Shown here: positions 54,601 through 59,872 of the stretch, one piece after another | How the letters are laid out: each line of letters starts with the position of its first letter | How positions within the stretch are numbered: the stretch's first letter is position 1 | Virus record (IMG/VR): IMGVR_UViG_3300023371_000005 | Origin: a virus | Lineage: Duplodnaviria > Heunggongvirae > Uroviricota > Caudoviricetes | Reading direction: 5' to 3' (one strand) | DNA length: 64,000 bases | Program-made: the position numbers and the translations under genes | The notes under the pieces: model-generated | What the model saw: the letters and a program-made list of their open reading frames with translations, nothing else | Told to the model about the DNA's origin: nothing | The model's database searches: none

Positions 54601-55567
54601 GCAATAAATCCCAAAGATTATCATAAAATGGAACTTGAACTTTAGGAATAATCTGCTTACGCTCCAAAGAGTAATCTTCAATTTTACTCTGAGCTTCTAA
54701 GGTCGCCGCAAAAATATCATCAATATCAACATCACTAAATGACTTTGACAATAATGTTCGACACTCTTCTGGACTCATTAAATATGCGAACTCATAGAAG
54801 TCATCAACTTCTCGTTCACCATCTTTTGAGTTCAAATAAGATTTATGGACAAATCTATCTTCTTTTGTCAAATAATGAGAGTCAGTACCAACAACCATAT
54901 TGATACCATATGCTTTCGCAATTCTCATTAGTTTGCGGTTGACCTCACATTGTTGACTTGCGCTTGAGGGAGCGCACTCAATATAAAAATCATCACCAAA
55001 CAAGCCTCGACAATAATCAATAAAATCGCAAATCTGGTCATAATAAACCTTTGCGTTTACCATATCATTTACTCGTTCAGCCTGCGACATATTCCAGGCG
55101 GCGGTAGATAATTCACCACCAAGACAAGCAGAGGTCGCAATTACATGGCCACGATATTTGCTAATGATTTTAGTCATTTCTTCTTTCGTGATTGGCACAC
55201 GCTTCATACCTCTATCAGTATAAGCGTAATACCATGCAATAGAACTCAATTCACGAAGTGCCTTATGTCCGATGGCATCCTTCGCAACTAAAATAAAGTG
55301 ATAATATTTTATACCACTTTCTCGTTTATCTACTAAATAAACCTCATTGCCTAAAGCGATTTTGAAGTCGGGATGGTTCTTTTTAACTTCCTTCGCATAT
55401 TGATTTACTTCCATATGACCACTAATACATTCATGGTCAGTAATCGCAATGCCAGAAAGACCCAACTCAATCGCTTTGTCAATGAGGTCTTTTGGTCTAT
55501 TGATACAATCGAGCAAGCGGATATTAGAATACATAGTATGATTGTGAATATTGAAGTAAGTTGTCAT
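51602..55567 (-). CDS. dnaE: DNA polymerase III alpha subunit (DnaE-type) with an N-terminal PHP domain, 1321 aa
   Basis: PHP motif FNIHNHTMYSNIRLLDCINRPKDLIDKAIELGLSGIAITDHE. Length and architecture of bacterial Pol III alpha. GAGG RBS. No TAG. Confidence 0.75.
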   Translation of the reverse strand: MTTYFNIHNHTMYSNIRLLDCINRPKDLIDKAIELGLSGIAITDHECISGHMEVNQYAKEVKKNHPDFKIALGNEVYLVDKRESGIKYYHFILVAKDAIGHKALRELSSIAWYYAYTDRGMKRVPITKEEMTKIISKYRGHVIATSACLGGELSTAAWNMSQAERVNDMVNAKVYYDQICDFIDYCRGLFGDDFYIECAPSSASQQCEVNRKLMRIAKAYGINMVVGTDSHYLTKEDRFVHKSYLNSKDGEREVDDFYEFAYLMSPEECRTLLSKSFSDVDIDDIFAATLEAQSKIEDYSLERKQIIPKVQVPFYDNLWDLLPEDIQWDSYQWPTLDRIICAGNDQERYWLGECLKSMHEKGFIDKREYWDRLETEADVIDDIGRKLEDCLFAYFNTFKHYIDLFWECGSIVGPGRGSATGFLSNYLLGITQLDPVRWKLPYWRFLNKERAELPDIDIDLAPSKRPEIFRRIRKERGELGLIQVGTFGTEGTKSAILTACRGYRSEDFPDGIDVDQAQYMSSLIPQERGFLWSIDDVVNGNESKDRKPVVAFIREVNQYPGLLNIIKSIDGLVNKCSSHASGVILYGDDPFDTAAFMRTPSGDLITCYDLHKAEAAGDTKYDFLVTEISDKIIKCFELLVADKVIPDLSLRELYNKYIHPEVMDTTDQRIWDHLAAGDVLDVFQFSTGVGLAIAKKLKPQNPMEMTAANAMMRLMSEKGKESQQDRYVRIQRKGLTEFHREMVQAGLDSNMIALMHKHCDQYWGCCAIQEQMMELLMDVAGFTLGEANTARKIVGKKQMSKIPQLREDVYSRFDHVNSANYFWENAVAPQLGYAFSLNHSLPYSFVGMQSIYLAMNFNPIYWNTACLIVNSGSLEDNSEEEIVDIYEPEGQDLSEGVTFQDLPDRSGKIRKTASTDYGKIAKAIGDIRAAGIKVSLVDINKSQFGFAPDVENNRILFGLKGMLNVGDDVIAAIIANRPYASPKDFLQKVKPGKQAMISLIKGGAFDDMEDRRFVMAWYLWETCDKKSRLTLQNMGGLIKHGLLPESTEEQIMARRVYEFNRYLKAITKADECAYKDMYSLDPRAISFLHEIECEDLMESDNLAWFIKVKTWDNVYQKYMNIFRNWIATDKEEILEALNTKIFMEDWEKYAQGSISAWEMEVLCFYYHEHELAHVNNDKYGFVDFFALPEDPVIEKTFKKGDKEIHIFHLNRICGTCIAKNKTKSTVTILTNTGVVNVKFRKEYFTLFDKQISARQPDGTKKIMEKSWFNRGNMIVVTGIRSGDDFISKKYASTGGHQLYKIDKIYPNGDLKLLDARYQGDE

Positions 55568-55602
55568 TCTATTATCCTCTTTCTTTTTACTTATTATACT
55601 AT

Positions 55603-55631
55603 ATTATATCAATTTTTTTTATGTAAGTCAA
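55603..55631 (-). promoter_or_regulatory. Sigma70-like promoter on the - strand in front of dnaE. Copy 2 of the duplicated element.
   Basis: TTGACT (55631-55626), identical 17-nt spacer, TATAAT (55608-55603). Confidence 0.6.
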
Positions 55632-56755
55632 TCTTTGGTGACAATCACCAATTTCTCTGCCGCACGAGTGGCCGCAGTGTATAACCAACGAGCATGATCA
55701 ACGGGCTGGAAGGGGAACTTTTCTTCCAGAACCAAGACGTTATCCCATTCAGAACCCTGCGCTTTATGACAGGTAATGGCATATCCATAAGTAAATTCCT
55801 TTGGCACAACATCGCCAATACGATTTTTTAGCTTATTCAGCTTATACTTATCACGCCATTCAAGCTCGCTTTCGCCGCCCTTCATAATGCGAGGGTCCAT
55901 ATTGATATGACCATAATTCTCACCTAAGTCAGATTCAAATACACCAGTAAGGATATTGATCTTACCCTTCTCATAAGCGTAAAACGGGACATTGATATGA
56001 CTATACTTGGGATCATGTAATGTTCCAATAGTGCCATTTACCAATGGGTCGCCGTTAGTCAAATTACCCCAGTCCCAGTAATTCCGCAGACAAATAACTT
56101 TATCTCCTTCTTCTGGCTCAGGTCCAAAACCTCGTTGCTGACGCATGAAATCATTCATACTGTGCCGTTGTAGATTAGTCGCAACAAGAACCTGGTCTGC
56201 CCAATCAAGCATTCCGGTATTGAGCGCGCTGGCTGGATAAATTTGAACTTGGTCATTCTTTATATATTCCAAAGGCTTCTGGTCTCGAATATCCATAGTC
56301 AAACGGATAATACCAGATTCAGTAGCCTGTCTCATAATTTCATCAAGGAAGATATGAGGATGGTCAAGCAAATGATTATCCTCGTCTTTCTCAATGGGTG
56401 GCAACTGGAACGGGTCGCCAAGACAAATTACATATACATTATGGGAGAATAATTTATCCATAATACTCTTGGGCGCCATGGACACCTCATCAACCACAAC
56501 GACTGTATATTCCAAAGATTTCTTTGGGATTCTAGTAAATCCACCGCCTGGACGAGGCACGCTATCATAAAGCAGACGATGTAGAGTCATTGCGTTCTTA
56601 TTGCCCTTCTTAGCTAGAACCTGGGCGGCCTTGCCTGTAAAAGTAGCAAAGCAAACTTTATTATGTTCTACATCTAATGCTTCAATGATAAATTTTACCA
56701 GAGTGCTCTTTCCTGTACCTGCCTTTAGGCGTAGCCAGCAATCACAGTGTACTTT
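55628..56755 (-). CDS. Dda/RecD-like SF1 helicase. The track ORF 55628..56590 lacks Walker A. The motif lies in frame upstream as far as an in-frame TGA at 56758-56756. No in-frame start codon was found in that 165-nt stretch.
   Basis: In-frame upstream extension reads KVHCDCWLRLKAGTGKSTLVKFIIEALDVEHNKVCFATFTGKAAQVLAKKGNKNA-MTLHRL... (compare T4 Dda GPAGTGKTTLTKFIIEAL). Downstream motifs VVVDEVSM, GDPFQLPPI, YAITCHKAQGSEWDNV and YTAATRAAEKLVIV. Confidence 0.55.
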   Translation of the reverse strand, partial: KVHCDCWLRLKAGTGKSTLVKFIIEALDVEHNKVCFATFTGKAAQVLAKKGNKNAMTLHRLLYDSVPRPGGGFTRIPKKSLEYTVVVVDEVSMAPKSIMDKLFSHNVYVICLGDPFQLPPIEKDEDNHLLDHPHIFLDEIMRQATESGIIRLTMDIRDQKPLEYIKNDQVQIYPASALNTGMLDWADQVLVATNLQRHSMNDFMRQQRGFGPEPEEGDKVICLRNYWDWGNLTNGDPLVNGTIGTLHDPKYSHINVPFYAYEKGKINILTGVFESDLGENYGHINMDPRIMKGGESELEWRDKYKLNKLKNRIGDVVPKEFTYGYAITCHKAQGSEWDNVLVLEEKFPFQPVDHARWLYTAATRAAEKLVIVTKD

Positions 56756-56781
56756 TCATGTGCTCTGTGTCTGGCTACGGC
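56728..56781 (-). other. Strong composite hairpin enclosing the in-frame TGA and a 5-codon mini-ORF (ATG AAA AGT ACA CTG TGA) at the 5' end of the helicase gene
   Basis: GGCGTAGCCAG-caat-CACAG-(17-nt loop)-CTGTG-t-CTGGCTACGGC on the + strand. The helicase-frame TGA sits inside the loop. No U-tract follows on the - strand. Confidence 0.5.
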
Positions 56782-56816
56782 AATTTTCAAACCTTCTTCT
56801 TGCTTTCTTGTAAGAA

Positions 56817-57377
56817 TCACAGTTCTACTTCCTCTCTTTCTTCAATATTCAAATCTTCAATATTCCATAGATTATCATGTAGTTCTTTATGACAATTAGA
56901 ACAAATTAAAATACATTTTTTACTTTCTTCTACTGCTTCTAATAAGTGAAAATGGTCATTGCTAATTGTAAAATCTTTTTTAGAGGGGTCAATGTGATGA
57001 AATTCTAATGCTTTTATACATCTATCATATCCACATCTTATACATTTTCCACCACGAGATTCTTTTATTTTAGCTAAAAACATTCCTCTCGTTAATTGAA
57101 CTCCATTTGGCATACAGTTATAACAACAGGTTCTTTGATGAGCCGTAGAAGTTAAAGGATAAAATTCTTTTCCACAAATGGGACAAATTTTTGGTTTTCC
57201 TTTATAAGAAGTATCTTTTTGATTCTTTTCTTTATTGGCGTATTTTTCTCTGCGCGAAGCGTTTTGACATTCTATACTACAGTATTTTTTAGTAGAACGG
57301 ATTGCCTCAAATTCATTTCCACACATAACACATTTATTTATCATATATTTTCTCCTTTTTTGAAATATTTCTTTCAT
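56817..57377 (-). CDS. HNH endonuclease with N-terminal CxxC zinc-ribbon repeats. Likely a homing-type mobile endonuclease. Probable true start at the internal ATG 57344.
   Basis: C-terminal HHIDPSKKDF...NDHFH...CSNCHKELH HNH motif. Several CxxC pairs. AAAAGGAG RBS 8 nt before ATG 57344. TGA stop. Confidence 0.65.
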   Translation of the reverse strand: MKEIFQKRRKYMINKCVMCGNEFEAIRSTKKYCSIECQNASRREKYANKEKNQKDTSYKGKPKICPICGKEFYPLTSTAHQRTCCYNCMPNGVQLTRGMFLAKIKESRGGKCIRCGYDRCIKALEFHHIDPSKKDFTISNDHFHLLEAVEESKKCILICSNCHKELHDNLWNIEDLNIEEREEVEL

Positions 57378-57468
57378 TATATTTCAAAAATAAGACAAGT
57401 AAATTCGTCAGCTTTGTCCGGAGTTTTACACAACGAACTTACCTAACCAAAGTTGCACAAGCAACTTA

Positions 57469-57702
57469 TCAATCATGCTCTCCTATTGCTTCATCTAAAA
57501 TCTGAATAAAACGCATCATATCTCGTTCATGCCTACGTATGACAGCCTCATGTGCTTTTGGTTCAGAGAACCCTTTACACTTCATCAATTCAATTTTGTC
57601 GTGTTCAAAGGCTTTTGCCTGGTATTCCTTAAAACGGAATACCAGACTATCAAACATATAACCCTTTAAATGCTTATTATCACTAAAATGTACTTTTTCC
57701 AT
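57469..57702 (-). CDS. Hypothetical protein, about 77 aa. The track ORF 57469..57798 is trimmed to the internal ATG that has an RBS.
   Basis: Extended -10 TGGTATAAT (57730-57722) and an AAAAGG RBS upstream of ATG 57702. TGA-TAA tandem stop. Confidence 0.4.
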   Translation of the reverse strand: MEKVHFSDNKHLKGYMFDSLVFRFKEYQAKAFEHDKIELMKCKGFSEPKAHEAVIRRHERDMMRFIQILDEAIGEHD

Positions 57703-57739
57703 ACTAATACCTTTTATTTTTATTATACCAAAATATTTC

Positions 57740-58069
57740 TTATAAATCAATAAGGAACATATTGTTGTCCAATTTAAGAAAATCTTCATCCCACTCAATT
57801 TGGGGAAAAATTTCTAAATCGCTTTTTTGTTTTGGGTTTTCGGCTGGCGCGTCTGGCACCGGTCGGATGGCGTCTTGGAGAGCAATTATATTGGCAATAG
57901 CATTGCTTATCGCTCTTTCAAGTTCATCGACTCTACATTCAAGCACTCGAAAAGAATCACTCAATGTAGTTGCAGTACTAGCCATATCACAAGTTAGCAT
58001 ATCAACTCTATCTTGGATTAGATCAACCATGTACTTTGCGCCATCAGCAGTTAATACTTGTAATGCCAT
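57740..58069 (-). CDS. Hypothetical protein, 109 aa
   Basis: Continuous ORF with a GGAGGA RBS. Confidence 0.4.
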   Translation of the reverse strand: MALQVLTADGAKYMVDLIQDRVDMLTCDMASTATTLSDSFRVLECRVDELERAISNAIANIIALQDAIRPVPDAPAENPKQKSDLEIFPQIEWDEDFLKLDNNMFLIDL

Positions 58070-58078
58070 ATATCCTCC

Positions 58079-59872
58079 TTAGAAGTAATACTTCTGTTCA
58101 CCAACAATTTCATAATCCTCAATAATAATTTGAGGAGAAACACTTCCGTTCCAGACATTGCGTTCACATTTGCCAACTACATTGATGGTGATACAACCCA
58201 TCTCACTCTTCAACTTCTCATATTCTTCTTGAGAAGATTTGAATTTGATAAGACTTGTGCCATTTGGTAAAGTGATCTTCAAAGTAGGACTCTTATCGGG
58301 AGACATGAGCACAATATTACCGCTTGATACATTGATATGTTCAATAGCAACAAATGGTTCATCAACGCCTTGACCCCAAAGAGATTTCAAACCAGCAATC
58401 TCAATGATATCACTACCTCTGAAATCTGCTCCACTGAAAATGAAATCAACTTTATAACAAGGAGTAAAATCAAACTCAGCCAAAGCCTTATTTGAATACT
58501 CCACAAATTCAGAAAATACTTTATCGTAAATGCCAACGCCGAGCGCATTAGCATGGCCTTCCGCATACATTACCAGGCCACTATTTTGTAGGAACTGGCG
58601 CAAATTATCAAACTTAGATTTATCATAACCACGACCAGAGCCTTCCCAGCTTTGCTCCTGTAAAGTCATAATCTTCTTACCATTGGTATCAAATATGTCT
58701 TGCTCAGTAATTGTCTTATTCAGTAGTAAAACTGGACGCTGGTATTTAGCCATAAGTTGGTTGGCGATAAGACCGGTTAGATTGCGATCCGCAGAAAAAG
58801 AATCCAGCTTGATTGCCAGAATTTTATTCTTCAATAAATCTTTTTGCTTGATAATAGCTTCAATAGTCTCAAGCGCAGCATCTCTTGCCTTAGTCTGACG
58901 ATTTTTGATATTCGTACAATTTCGGCACGCCTGCTCTACGCGAGTTTCTTGCTGACCCTTACAGCCTCTCTTGGTTGAAGGAATTAGCTCATATCCACGA
59001 TAATCTAACATCGATTCAAACATCAATAACTTTTCCTCTTGGCTACCCATTCGGATAGTAGCATTGACATATGGAGCAACATAGAACGCAATACCAATAG
59101 GAGTGATACCGTCCTTTAGCGAATACTGTTGCTTATCAACCATGCCTTTGAAATAAGGATTTCTGATATTTTGTAAGCCACGATGAATTAAATGCTTGGT
59201 TTCAAAATCTCTCAAATCCATCATATCGGCAATCATGCCAAGAGCAACCAAATCAAGAAACTGATCGGCATAATCAACATTCATAAGTTCGTCAATATAA
59301 GAACAAAACTTATAAACCATGCCGACACCAGAAAGAGATTTAGTTGGATAATCACATAGCTGGTTATTGATAACGCAAGCATATTCGCTAACTTTTTCAG
59401 CTTCGTGGTGGTCAATAACCAGAACATCTACTCCACGCTCATGGAGCTTTTTATGTTCTTCATAATCATTTGAACTTGAGTCTGGCGCAATTACCAACTT
59501 TACATCAGCTGGAATTGTATTGAGAATAATACCATGTTCTTTACCATTATGGATGCGGTAATAAACATTATTCTGAACATATCCAGGAAATAGGCAGTTC
59601 AAATAATTGATTAGTGTTGCCGCTGAAGTGTAACCATCACAGTCGCTATCAATTTGGATTAGGATCTTGTGTCCTTGCGAGATGTGATAAATCAACAGCT
59701 TTACACCCTACGCGATATTCGCAATAAGGGAGGGTGCTAAAATGTCTTCATCAGTTGTATTTAGATAATGCTCAATTTTATCGGGTTCAATGCCACGATT
59801 TACGAGTACCTGTTCGACCGCAGATAAAACATCCTTGTGCGGGATGCGAGGTACTATTAGTTGATATTCCAA
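58079..59872 (-). CDS. recJ: RecJ-like DHH-family single-strand DNA exonuclease, about 597 aa, with one in-frame TAG (59710-59708) in the conserved N-terminus
   Basis: The track ORF starts at TTG 59695, but the frame extends upstream through the TAG. That gives EYQLIVPRIPHKDVLSAVEQVLVNRGIEPDKIEHYLNTTDEDILAPSLIANIA-TAG-GVKLLIYHISQGHKILIQIDSDCDGYTSAATL, which matches the RecJ N-terminal pattern LxxRGIxxxxxxxxFLxP...KILIxGDxDxDGxTS. DHH motif VLVIDHHEA. AAAGGAGG RBS precedes TTG 59872. Confidence 0.6.

Follow-up and report, generated by a model that had tools for sequence, protein, structure and literature searches.

A helicase gene split in its Walker A motif

The window analysed here, a 64-kb stretch of viral DNA (Caudoviricetes, IMG/VR record IMGVR_UViG_3300023371_000005), carries a Dda-like helicase gene whose Walker A coding sequence is split by a short insert, with an RNA hairpin just upstream of the insert and an HNH endonuclease gene adjoining the helicase start. 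All features of the locus lie on the minus strand, and the evidence is comparative sequence throughout. The insert, TAAAGGCA, is 8 nucleotides (nt) long, begins with a stop codon and separates the Ala codon (GCC) of the motif from the Gly codon (GGT), the transcript reading …GGC UAC GCC / GGU ACA GGA AAG… on its two sides. The features are collected in Table 1, where the last codon before the insert is called the take-off codon and the last triplet of the insert the landing triplet, in keeping with the ribosomal bypass that we propose below.

Table 1. Features of the helicase locus in window coordinates (aa, amino acids; bp, base pairs; ORF, open reading frame)
Feature	Position	Strand	Description
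HNH endonuclease gene	56817..57377	-	186 aa; TGA stop overlaps the helicase GTG start (GTGA)
Helicase N-terminal coding part	56728..56820	-	31 codons, GTG start to take-off codon GCC; encodes MILTRKQEEGLKIAVARHRAHEKYTVIAGYA
Short ORF in the frame of the N-terminal part	GTG 56820 to TAA 56727-56725	-	31 codons, MILTRKQEEGLKIAVARHRAHEKYTVIAGYA
RNA hairpin	56730..56779	-	3' arm ends at the first base of the take-off codon
Outer stem	CGUAGCCAG 56779-56771 with CUGGCUACG 56738-56730	-	9 bp
Inner stem	CACAG 56769-56765 with CUGUG 56747-56743	-	
Proposed take-off codon GCC	56728..56730	-	Ala31, the Ala of G-Y-A-G-T-G-K-S-T
Insert TAAAGGCA	56727-56720	-	8 nt, untranslated in the proposed reading; TAA 56727-56725; putative landing triplet GCA 56722-56720
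Helicase C-terminal coding part	55628..56719	-	363 codons plus stop; would resume at GGT 56719-56717 with GTGKSTLVKF
Mechanically called ORF	55628..56590	-	320 aa, starts at Met75, past Walker A

The peptide encoded upstream of the insert is a canonical lead-in to a Walker A motif, and it matched residues 1-31 of intact 394-aa Dda-like helicases residue for residue (alignment; tblastn). Removal of the 8 nt gave a joined helicase of 394 aa, equal in length to intact relatives (identity up to 95%), and alignment with intact Dda-like helicases, as suggested in the original prediction made from the bare sequence, placed the insertion between the Ala and the Gly of Walker A. The joined protein matched the Pfam families AAA_30 (1.5e-24), AAA_19 (1.6e-20) and UvrD_C_2 (2.9e-19), and its residues 1-390 aligned unbroken to annotated Dda-like helicases of Enterococcus phages, which have the gene order RecJ-like exonuclease, helicase and DNA polymerase in common with the window. 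As judged from this full-length homology, the window gene is one Dda/RecD-like superfamily 1 (SF1) helicase with a P-loop core and a UvrD_C_2 C-terminal domain. The window contains one helicase copy only, and no near-identical DNA was found in cultured phages, so that no isolate is at hand.

The original prediction had described the helicase as lacking a start codon. Instead, the gene opens at GTG 56820, and its 31-codon N-terminal part, in another frame than the large ORF, aligns to the intact relatives. It was correctly stated that the frame of the large ORF reads TGA(56758-56756)-KVHCDCWLRLKAGTGKSTLV without ATG, GTG or TTG, and that the called ORF starts at a Met after Walker A; this 320-aa call is an annotation artefact caused by the interruption. 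The 'KVHCDCWLRLKA' peptide, the TGA and the mini-ORF (ATG AAA AGT ACA CTG TGA), to which attention had been drawn, are indeed present, but are out-of-frame readings of real helicase codons. A read or assembly error is excluded by the identical junction in independent ENA and JGI assemblies. The phage of the window is widespread, its ORF being listed in 38 blocks of the collection; 23 carrying contigs were read, and a close variant from a sister strain (L160) has the insert TAAAAGCA with the stop and the final GCA unchanged.

Insert variants, junction codons and the upstream hairpin

A large protein database contained many relatives of exactly 394 aa, at most 95% identical to the window helicase and all with EKYTVIAGYAGTGKSTLV. 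Intact relatives read GCN/GGN at the junction, where the insert is absent and the DNA is …GGCTACGCCGGTACAGGAAAG…. The same database also lists shortened helicase calls of 320, 347 and 356 aa. We fetched the DNA behind six shortened calls, picked by protein similarity alone, and identified five interrupted genes among them: GCC TAACT GGA with a 5-nt insert (L058), and GCC TGAGTT GGT (L007), GCC TAAGTT GGT (L008), GCC TAAGTA GGA (L059) and GCC TGAGTT GGA (L060) with 6-nt inserts. The sixth gene (L006, P0062; 2780-3963) reads GCC GGT and is intact, its TTG start having been missed by the caller to give the public 320-aa call, which shows that a shortened public call does not always mean an interruption. 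A protein-based scan of IMG/VR added two further genes, with the inserts TAGGTA (L024) and TAAGTA (L033), both only 52-56% identical to the window.

A catalogue was then built by pattern scans of viral and metagenome contigs, in which the patterns required GGCTAY before the Ala codon. It comprises 92 distinct metagenomic junction contexts with 35 insert types, all at one site. The inserts were 5 nt (31 contexts), 6 nt (19), 7 nt (14), 8 nt (27) or 11 nt (1) long; every insert started with a stop codon (TAA in 62, TGA in 21 and TAG in 9 contexts), and taking out any of them restored GYA/GTGK in all 92 contexts. As every frame class is represented among these lengths, neither readthrough alone nor one frameshift alone can explain the inserts. 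The fixed frameshift put forward earlier does not fit either, since the window needs a net 8 nt (equivalent to +2 or -1) and its relatives 5, 6, 7, 8 or 11 nt. Moreover, upstream contexts differing at no more than 3 of 72 nt hold inserts of 5, 6, 6 and 8 nt, and further groups with near-identical upstream DNA combine 7 with 8 nt, or 8, 8 and 6 nt. Such length changes of 1-3 nt between near-identical genes argue that the segment is not decoded.

No other junction of this type was found in a scan of the whole 64-kb window besides the helicase site. A supposed second gene family with a 4-nt insert at 'GYA/GTGKAPTTF' (L061, L068 and others) was rejected as chance pattern matches with low-complexity translations and short ORFs. 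This 4-nt-spacer family, GGCTAYGCC TAAG GGNACNGGNAAR (L061, L068, L069, L072, L082, L098, L112, L115, L126 and L135), is unrelated to the helicase, and its true gene probably lies on the opposite strand. In Bacillus phage vB_BpuM-BpSp (KT895374.1; L002, 2486-4025), a Dda-like helicase homolog is annotated as two 'hypothetical protein' coding sequences ~320 nt apart, and is thus split by something far larger than the 5-11-nt inserts.

The codons at the two edges of the insert follow strict rules. The Ala codon before it was GCC in 68 and GCT in 24 of the 92 contexts; GCA and GCG never occurred though the scan admitted them, and a scan admitting GCA, GCG or GCT returned 28 helicase hits, all with GCT. 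Intact genes have GCT (9), GCA (7), GCG (3) or GCC (2) at the junction, and GCC is the rarest Ala codon in these helicase genes (12%). The tRNA-Ala with anticodon GGC reads two codons, GCC and, by wobble, GCU. At the other edge, the last triplet of the insert was in all 92 contexts GCN, GUN, ACY or GAU, each of which allows at least two of three pairs with anticodon GGC. A cognate GCN ends 18 of the 35 insert types, namely 15 of the 21 types of at least 7 nt and 3 of the 14 types of at most 6 nt. The matched arrangements GCT TAA GCT and GCT TAG GCT occur in L166, L181 and L165.

The strong hairpin noted in the original prediction does exist, with a predicted fold of -23.7 kcal/mol (z = -3.63) in the window, whereas its arms had been mis-transcribed and are really CGUAGCCAG and CUGGCUACG. 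Over the upstream 66 nt, the mean minimum free energy was -22.3 kcal/mol in interrupted genes (n = 21) versus -8.6 in intact ones (n = 19), and over the upstream 72 nt it was -21.4 kcal/mol in the interrupted contexts (n = 92), with values of -17 or lower in 96%. When compared with synonymous recodings, the mean z was -3.7 for interrupted genes (n = 52; 92% below -2) and 0.0 for intact genes (n = 20; p = 8e-10), indicating that the hairpin is kept by synonymous codon choice. Column-wise covariation over 52 distinct sequences showed 74.8% of cells paired versus 24-50% with the partner columns slid. Double-sided changes numbered 55 against 30.5 expected, a count reached in 0 of 500 shuffles; columns 22/69, for instance, change from G-C to A-U and columns 34/57 from A-U to C-G. 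In some lineages the 5' arm lies in another register or uses another codon, but its 3' partner is unchanged. The 31 N-terminal codons showed 3-4-fold less synonymous divergence than the rest of the gene. The hairpin is under selection in the interrupted genes and is absent from intact ones.

In a free-RNA fold of window positions 56715-56790 (minus strand), the take-off GCC pairs with GGC in the insert as a GCC-UAAA-GGC mini-hairpin, and a second pairing joins GGUA of the resume site to UGCC on the upstream side of the hairpin, the insert being looped out of a near-continuous helix. This helix was dropped from the model, both because the mini-hairpin is seemingly impossible for other inserts (as read from the catalogue, unfolded) and because the structure cannot form inside a translating ribosome.

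We further studied the coding integrity of the two helicase parts. The N-terminal part has 31 codons in most interrupted loci. The C-terminal part was read to its stop in 51 contexts, of which 46 were open for at least 350 codons, and another 14 run off their contigs. The ratio of nonsynonymous to synonymous divergence (dN/dS) over the first 150 codons after the insert had a median of 0.057, and the downstream reading frame is under strong purifying selection. The segment of 37 codons that follows Walker A lacks a start codon of its own in 49 of 65 contexts, and for genes of the same insert type its dN/dS was 0.030 at a dS of 0.42. Such a low value, about 0.03, on a startless segment indirectly supports the view that both parts would be made as a single continuous polypeptide.

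Five contexts have early stops in the C-terminal part, which we considered and rejected as a sign of decay. Four of them carry in-frame TAG codons (seven in L081, two in L094 and one each in L133 and L007), across which the homology runs on, and two of these TAGs sit where relatives have Gln (HKA-Q-GSEWD and IMRQA-Q-ESE). This points to decoding of TAG as an amino acid in the L007, L081, L094 and L133 lineages, in each of which the insert stop is TGA. The fifth (L110) has an unrelated insertion. In this gene the helicase homology ends at a TAA ~312 nt past the junction (motif LGDP/QLP), with unrelated sequence from there to the end of the contig. This second insertion may be an intron or another mobile element; an Rfam search of L110 gave only a sub-threshold U4 match, elsewhere in the locus.

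The HNH gene and the mosaic 5' end of the helicase

The ORF upstream of the helicase had been recognised as an HNH endonuclease, and the searches bear this out. Its product matched several PHROG HNH families (best phrog_2255, E = 3.3e-23), carries a visible HNH motif (...EFHHIDP...CSNCHKELH) and is 32-40% identical to annotated free-standing phage HNH endonucleases; no Pfam family matched it at E <= 0.01. In 24 of the 51 interrupted loci with enough flank, but in 0 of 20 intact loci, a homolog of the HNH gene (50-78% identity) stops no more than ~45 nt from where the helicase starts (p = 5e-5). Interrupted loci without an HNH gene have the helicase directly after the RecJ-like gene in four of eight cases examined, and such inserts retain the hairpin (-21.0 versus -22.6 kcal/mol), suggesting that it serves the helicase gene and not the endonuclease alone. 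In another member of the phage species of the window (L159, 700-1290), the HNH gene is frameshifted in its N-terminal part and called as two ORFs of 63 and 98 aa, while the 8-nt insert and the hairpin are unchanged, which points to decay of the endonuclease with the putative bypass kept. In an interrupted locus without an HNH gene (L040), a Cys-rich ORF of 55 aa (MICEKCKFFKD..., 1170-1337) lies where the close relative L049 has a full HNH gene, and may be a remnant or a replacement of it.

The 5' end of the helicase gene also differs in its relationships from the gene body. The first ~95 nt in the window are 66-73% identical to the closest intact relative (L156), which is without the hairpin and is 80-94% identical in the gene body, whereas more distant interrupted genes match these 95 nt at 92-100% identity, a block of similarity that stops exactly at the insert. 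The ungapped comparison of 5' and 3' identity is crude below ~60% identity, and the nearer pairs were relied on. On this pattern of identities, the mosaic 5' tract is the signature of a mobile cassette, or of a very strong structural constraint, or of both. The best explanation is that the insert, the hairpin-bearing 5' end and the often adjacent HNH gene behave as a mobile cassette. In the MobA/gene 60 system, the HNH endonuclease MobA and the gene 60 bypass likewise constitute a mobile cassette, with the bypass guarding the DNA from being nicked (bioRxiv 10.1101/2022.08.31.505936). By analogy, the carrier genome is probably protected because the helicase insert breaks up the HNH target site within the conserved Walker A DNA.

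A proposed hop over the stop codon and its alternatives

The best explanation of the locus is a programmed short translational bypass ('stop-hop') coupled to a homing-endonuclease cassette, to which we assign a probability of roughly 0.6. We favour it because it would explain together why the inserts come in all these lengths, why GCY always precedes them and a stop always begins them, why they end in a near-Ala triplet and why their removal restores the P-loop exactly. The original prediction had rightly called for non-standard decoding, with the hairpin involved and the neighbouring HNH gene relevant, and what lies at the site is more interesting than the three options that it offered. The junctions have the stop directly after the take-off codon and a landing triplet that can pair with the same tRNA, and they are free in gap length and frame, as expected of bypassing.

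In the proposed mechanism, the ribosome would translate 31 codons from GTG 56820 and pause when the P site contains GCC paired to peptidyl-tRNA-Ala and UAA has entered the A site. The anticodon would then release, the mRNA would slide by 8 nt (UAAAGGCA being skipped), and the tRNA would re-pair on GCA, the final triplet of the insert. Decoding would restart at GGU to give a normal helicase of 394 aa with the GYAGTGKST P-loop intact and a junction peptide of wild-type length, YTVIAGYAGTGK. Across the family, this would amount to take-off from GCY with a stop in the A site, a move of 5-11 nt, re-pairing at the last triplet of the insert and resumption at GGN. The hairpin may act as a stimulator of the hop, folding again behind the ribosome so as to draw the mRNA forward. 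At take-off, the 3' strand of the inner stem (~-18 to -11 from the P-site codon) would lie at or outside the mRNA exit and the 3' strand of the outer stem (-8 to +1) would still be within the ribosome, so that zipping up of the 9-bp outer stem would draw through about as many nucleotides as the gap is long. This geometry agrees with the proposal for gene 60 that pairing of the mRNA leaving the ribosome drives forward bypassing (bioRxiv 10.1101/2022.08.31.505936). We hold it slightly likelier than even that these loci are a natural, widespread and efficient class of short-range hops, made by tRNA-Ala(GGC) with a spring-like hairpin and repeatedly recruited by a homing-endonuclease cassette, which could thereby place protective DNA in the most conserved motif of an essential helicase and leave the protein as it is.

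Several points weigh against the stop-hop. Inserts of at most 6 nt mostly end near-cognate (11 of 14 types), where re-pairing would be weak, weaker than in classical matched hops. The GGCTAY requirement of the scans partly conditions both the 3' arm of the hairpin and the GCY rule; this objection is countered by the genes found without any DNA pattern, as all eight have GGCTAYGCC and the hairpin. The hairpin-pulling model draws on general knowledge of how far the mRNA exit lies from the P site. One lineage with the insert TGACT (L081, L177 and L184) is without a strong hairpin (-7.7 to -10.7 kcal/mol) and may depend on some other stimulator; L081 is also one of the TAG-containing genes. The cassette may have reached genes of the same insert type recently, by homing into already diverged genomes, which weakens the argument for purifying selection after insertion. 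Finally, synthetic short hops are described as of low efficiency (bioRxiv 10.1101/2022.08.31.505936), whereas a helicase essential for replication would have to be made in reasonable amounts.

An alternative that we consider improbable is recoding without a hop, in which the insert would be decoded by -1 frameshifting (5, 8 and 11 nt), readthrough (6 nt) or +1 frameshifting (7 nt). It would add two to four residues before GxGK[ST], giving GYA-LKA-GTGKST or GYA-KA-GTGKST in the window. The alternative frames through the inserts are stop-free by construction, yet three or four mechanisms would have to act at one homologous site, even in near-identical contexts. A stop in the A site is a known stimulator of +1 frameshifting, as in prfB, but there is no slippery sequence here and the tRNA-Ala would have to re-pair on CGC, CCU or CUA. 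Similarly, although a two-residue insertion still fits [AG]xxxxGK[ST] and the last triplet would encode a small residue (A, V, T or D) that is plausible before GxGK, the P-loop would differ in length by 2-4 residues among near-identical proteins, and the enrichment of cognate GCN in the longer inserts would be left unexplained. Efficient readthrough of all three stops would also be needed, yet no tRNA gene, and thus no suppressor tRNA, was found in the window. Stop reassignment or readthrough is further contradicted by the downstream part of the window gene, which is out of frame, and by the occurrence of all three stops at the site.

It is quite unlikely that the helicase is inactivated, with the HNH cassette or an imprecise repair having left a stop scar and the gene yielding a 31-aa peptide or an ATPase-dead fragment from Met75. 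The stop is a standard one, gene callers give the 320-aa ORF only, and L110 has its unrelated insertion further along the gene; however, the N-terminus is intact rather than truncated as in the pseudogene once suggested, both parts are open in nearly all contexts, and four of the five exceptions among the C-terminal parts are the TAG-containing genes with continuing homology. The dN/dS of 0.03-0.06 after the insert, the startless Walker A segment included, likewise speaks against a pseudogene. Random scars would not all start with a stop, follow GCY, end near-Ala and adjoin a selected hairpin, and the phage is widespread with this single helicase copy in the window.

Removal of the 8 nt at the nucleic-acid level, through RNA editing, processing with ligation or an insert-free sub-population of genomes, has very little to recommend it. 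The hairpin could in principle be a processing signal, but no Rfam family was found here and the insert is present in all independent assemblies; the GCY codon, the stop and the near-cognate triplet are features of decoding, not of RNA cleavage. To our knowledge, no bacterial or phage mechanism cuts 5-11 nt from an mRNA. The HNH gene adjoining the break and the TGA within the hairpin had prompted the proposals of an intron with an HNH gene splitting the helicase at motif I or of a prfB-like +1 shift at the mini-ORF CUG-UGA-U, to both of which we give next to no credence: the helicase N-terminal part lies between the HNH gene and Walker A, only 8 nt from the rest of the gene, which puts the HNH gene outside the helicase gene, an Rfam search of 55000-58600 returned no intron model or anything else at E <= 1, the CUG-UGA site is an out-of-frame reading of the conserved helicase codons H-E-K-Y-T-V whereas the gene is really broken at GCC-UAA, 30 nt further downstream, and a product with MKSTLDCWLR as predicted would be without the plainly encoded conserved N-terminus.

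The stop-hop has its closest counterpart in T4 gene 60 and MobA. In both, an essential DNA-metabolism gene has an invariant motif broken by a non-coding insert, a stop stands right after the take-off codon, the landing triplet is the same as the take-off codon or nearly so, and an HNH gene lies immediately upstream that is often lost or pseudogenised while the insert stays (here L159, L040 and the orphan inserts). The gene 60/MobA homologs all lie in topoisomerase genes and have gaps of 20-50 nt, a take-off stem-loop and a mini Shine-Dalgarno sequence (bioRxiv 10.1101/2022.08.31.505936). A nascent-peptide signal is a further mark of that cassette. The helicase inserts share no sequence homology with them, interrupting the Walker A motif of a Dda-like helicase and not a topoisomerase Toprim domain, and the host gene is not split into two ORFs with added tails. 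Their gaps of 5-11 nt leave no room for a take-off stem-loop, an internal Shine-Dalgarno sequence or scanning, and the tRNA would be tRNA-Ala (GCY) instead of tRNA-Gly or tRNA-Asp. A selected hairpin ending at the take-off codon dominates here, whereas the 5' stem-loop of gene 60 was reported not to be conserved (bioRxiv 10.1101/2022.08.31.505936). The bypass of gene 60 is experimentally proven, while the helicase hop is proposed from the comparison of genes. The helicase insert family is thus a functional analogue of T4 gene 60/MobA and not a member of that family.

Weiss, Dunn, Atkins and Gesteland reportedly described synthetic stop-hops in E. coli in 1987, in which 9 nt specify one amino acid. 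As in those constructs, a peptidyl-tRNA would pass over a stop to a matched codon independently of frame, and L166, L181 and L165 have exactly that arrangement; unlike the synthetic or adventitious cases, the helicase junctions are natural and conserved, have a dedicated hairpin and include out-of-frame gaps of 5, 7, 8 and 11 nt. A review of 2016 knew of no natural in-frame stop hops, and noted that short-distance counterparts of gene 60 had long been presumed (PMC5009743). The byps of Magnusiomyces capitatus mitochondria are 27-55 nt long and allow two-out-of-three pairing at take-off and landing (PMC5009743). As proposed for the helicase inserts, they are otherwise inactivating inserts tolerated through bypassing, with imperfect take-off/landing pairs and mobile-DNA behaviour. 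In contrast, they are mitochondrial, longer and spread over many sites in many genes, have an unassigned sense codon in the A site, and seem to rely on relaxed mitochondrial decoding and not on the local mRNA context (PMC5009743), whereas the helicase inserts are confined to a single site of one gene family, where a stop codon and a specific hairpin accompany them. In prfB (RF2), an A-site stop also provokes re-positioning of the P-site tRNA, but as a fixed +1 shift on the slippery CUU U with an upstream Shine-Dalgarno sequence, while the move proposed here is variable, 5-11 nt, and without slippery overlap. As for the endonuclease, it resembles free-standing phage HNH genes (the T4 Mob genes, those of FelixO1-like phages) in being a small gene between conserved replication genes with a patchy distribution among relatives, yet a link to a short bypass insert in the neighbouring gene is otherwise known only for MobA.

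Few decoding events depart further from the reading of triplets than programmed bypassing, and established natural cases known to us are rare, namely the byps of yeast mitochondria and the gene 60 family of T4, which is confined to topoisomerase genes. A full-text literature search found no description of a bypass in a helicase Walker A motif. If the stop-hop is real, the helicase inserts would be the first family of natural stop-hops and the second bypass system of bacterial viruses, with a far simpler signal (hairpin, GCY, stop and landing triplet), and their 35 natural gap variants would be a ready mutational series in gap length, landing codon and stem for the study of sliding driven by mRNA refolding. 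It would also reveal a systematic annotation error, public catalogues calling these helicases as proteins of 320-356 aa without Walker A. As a second, independent origin of an endonuclease-plus-bypass cassette, it would mean that evolution has arrived more than once at joining a homing endonuclease to a bypass insert.

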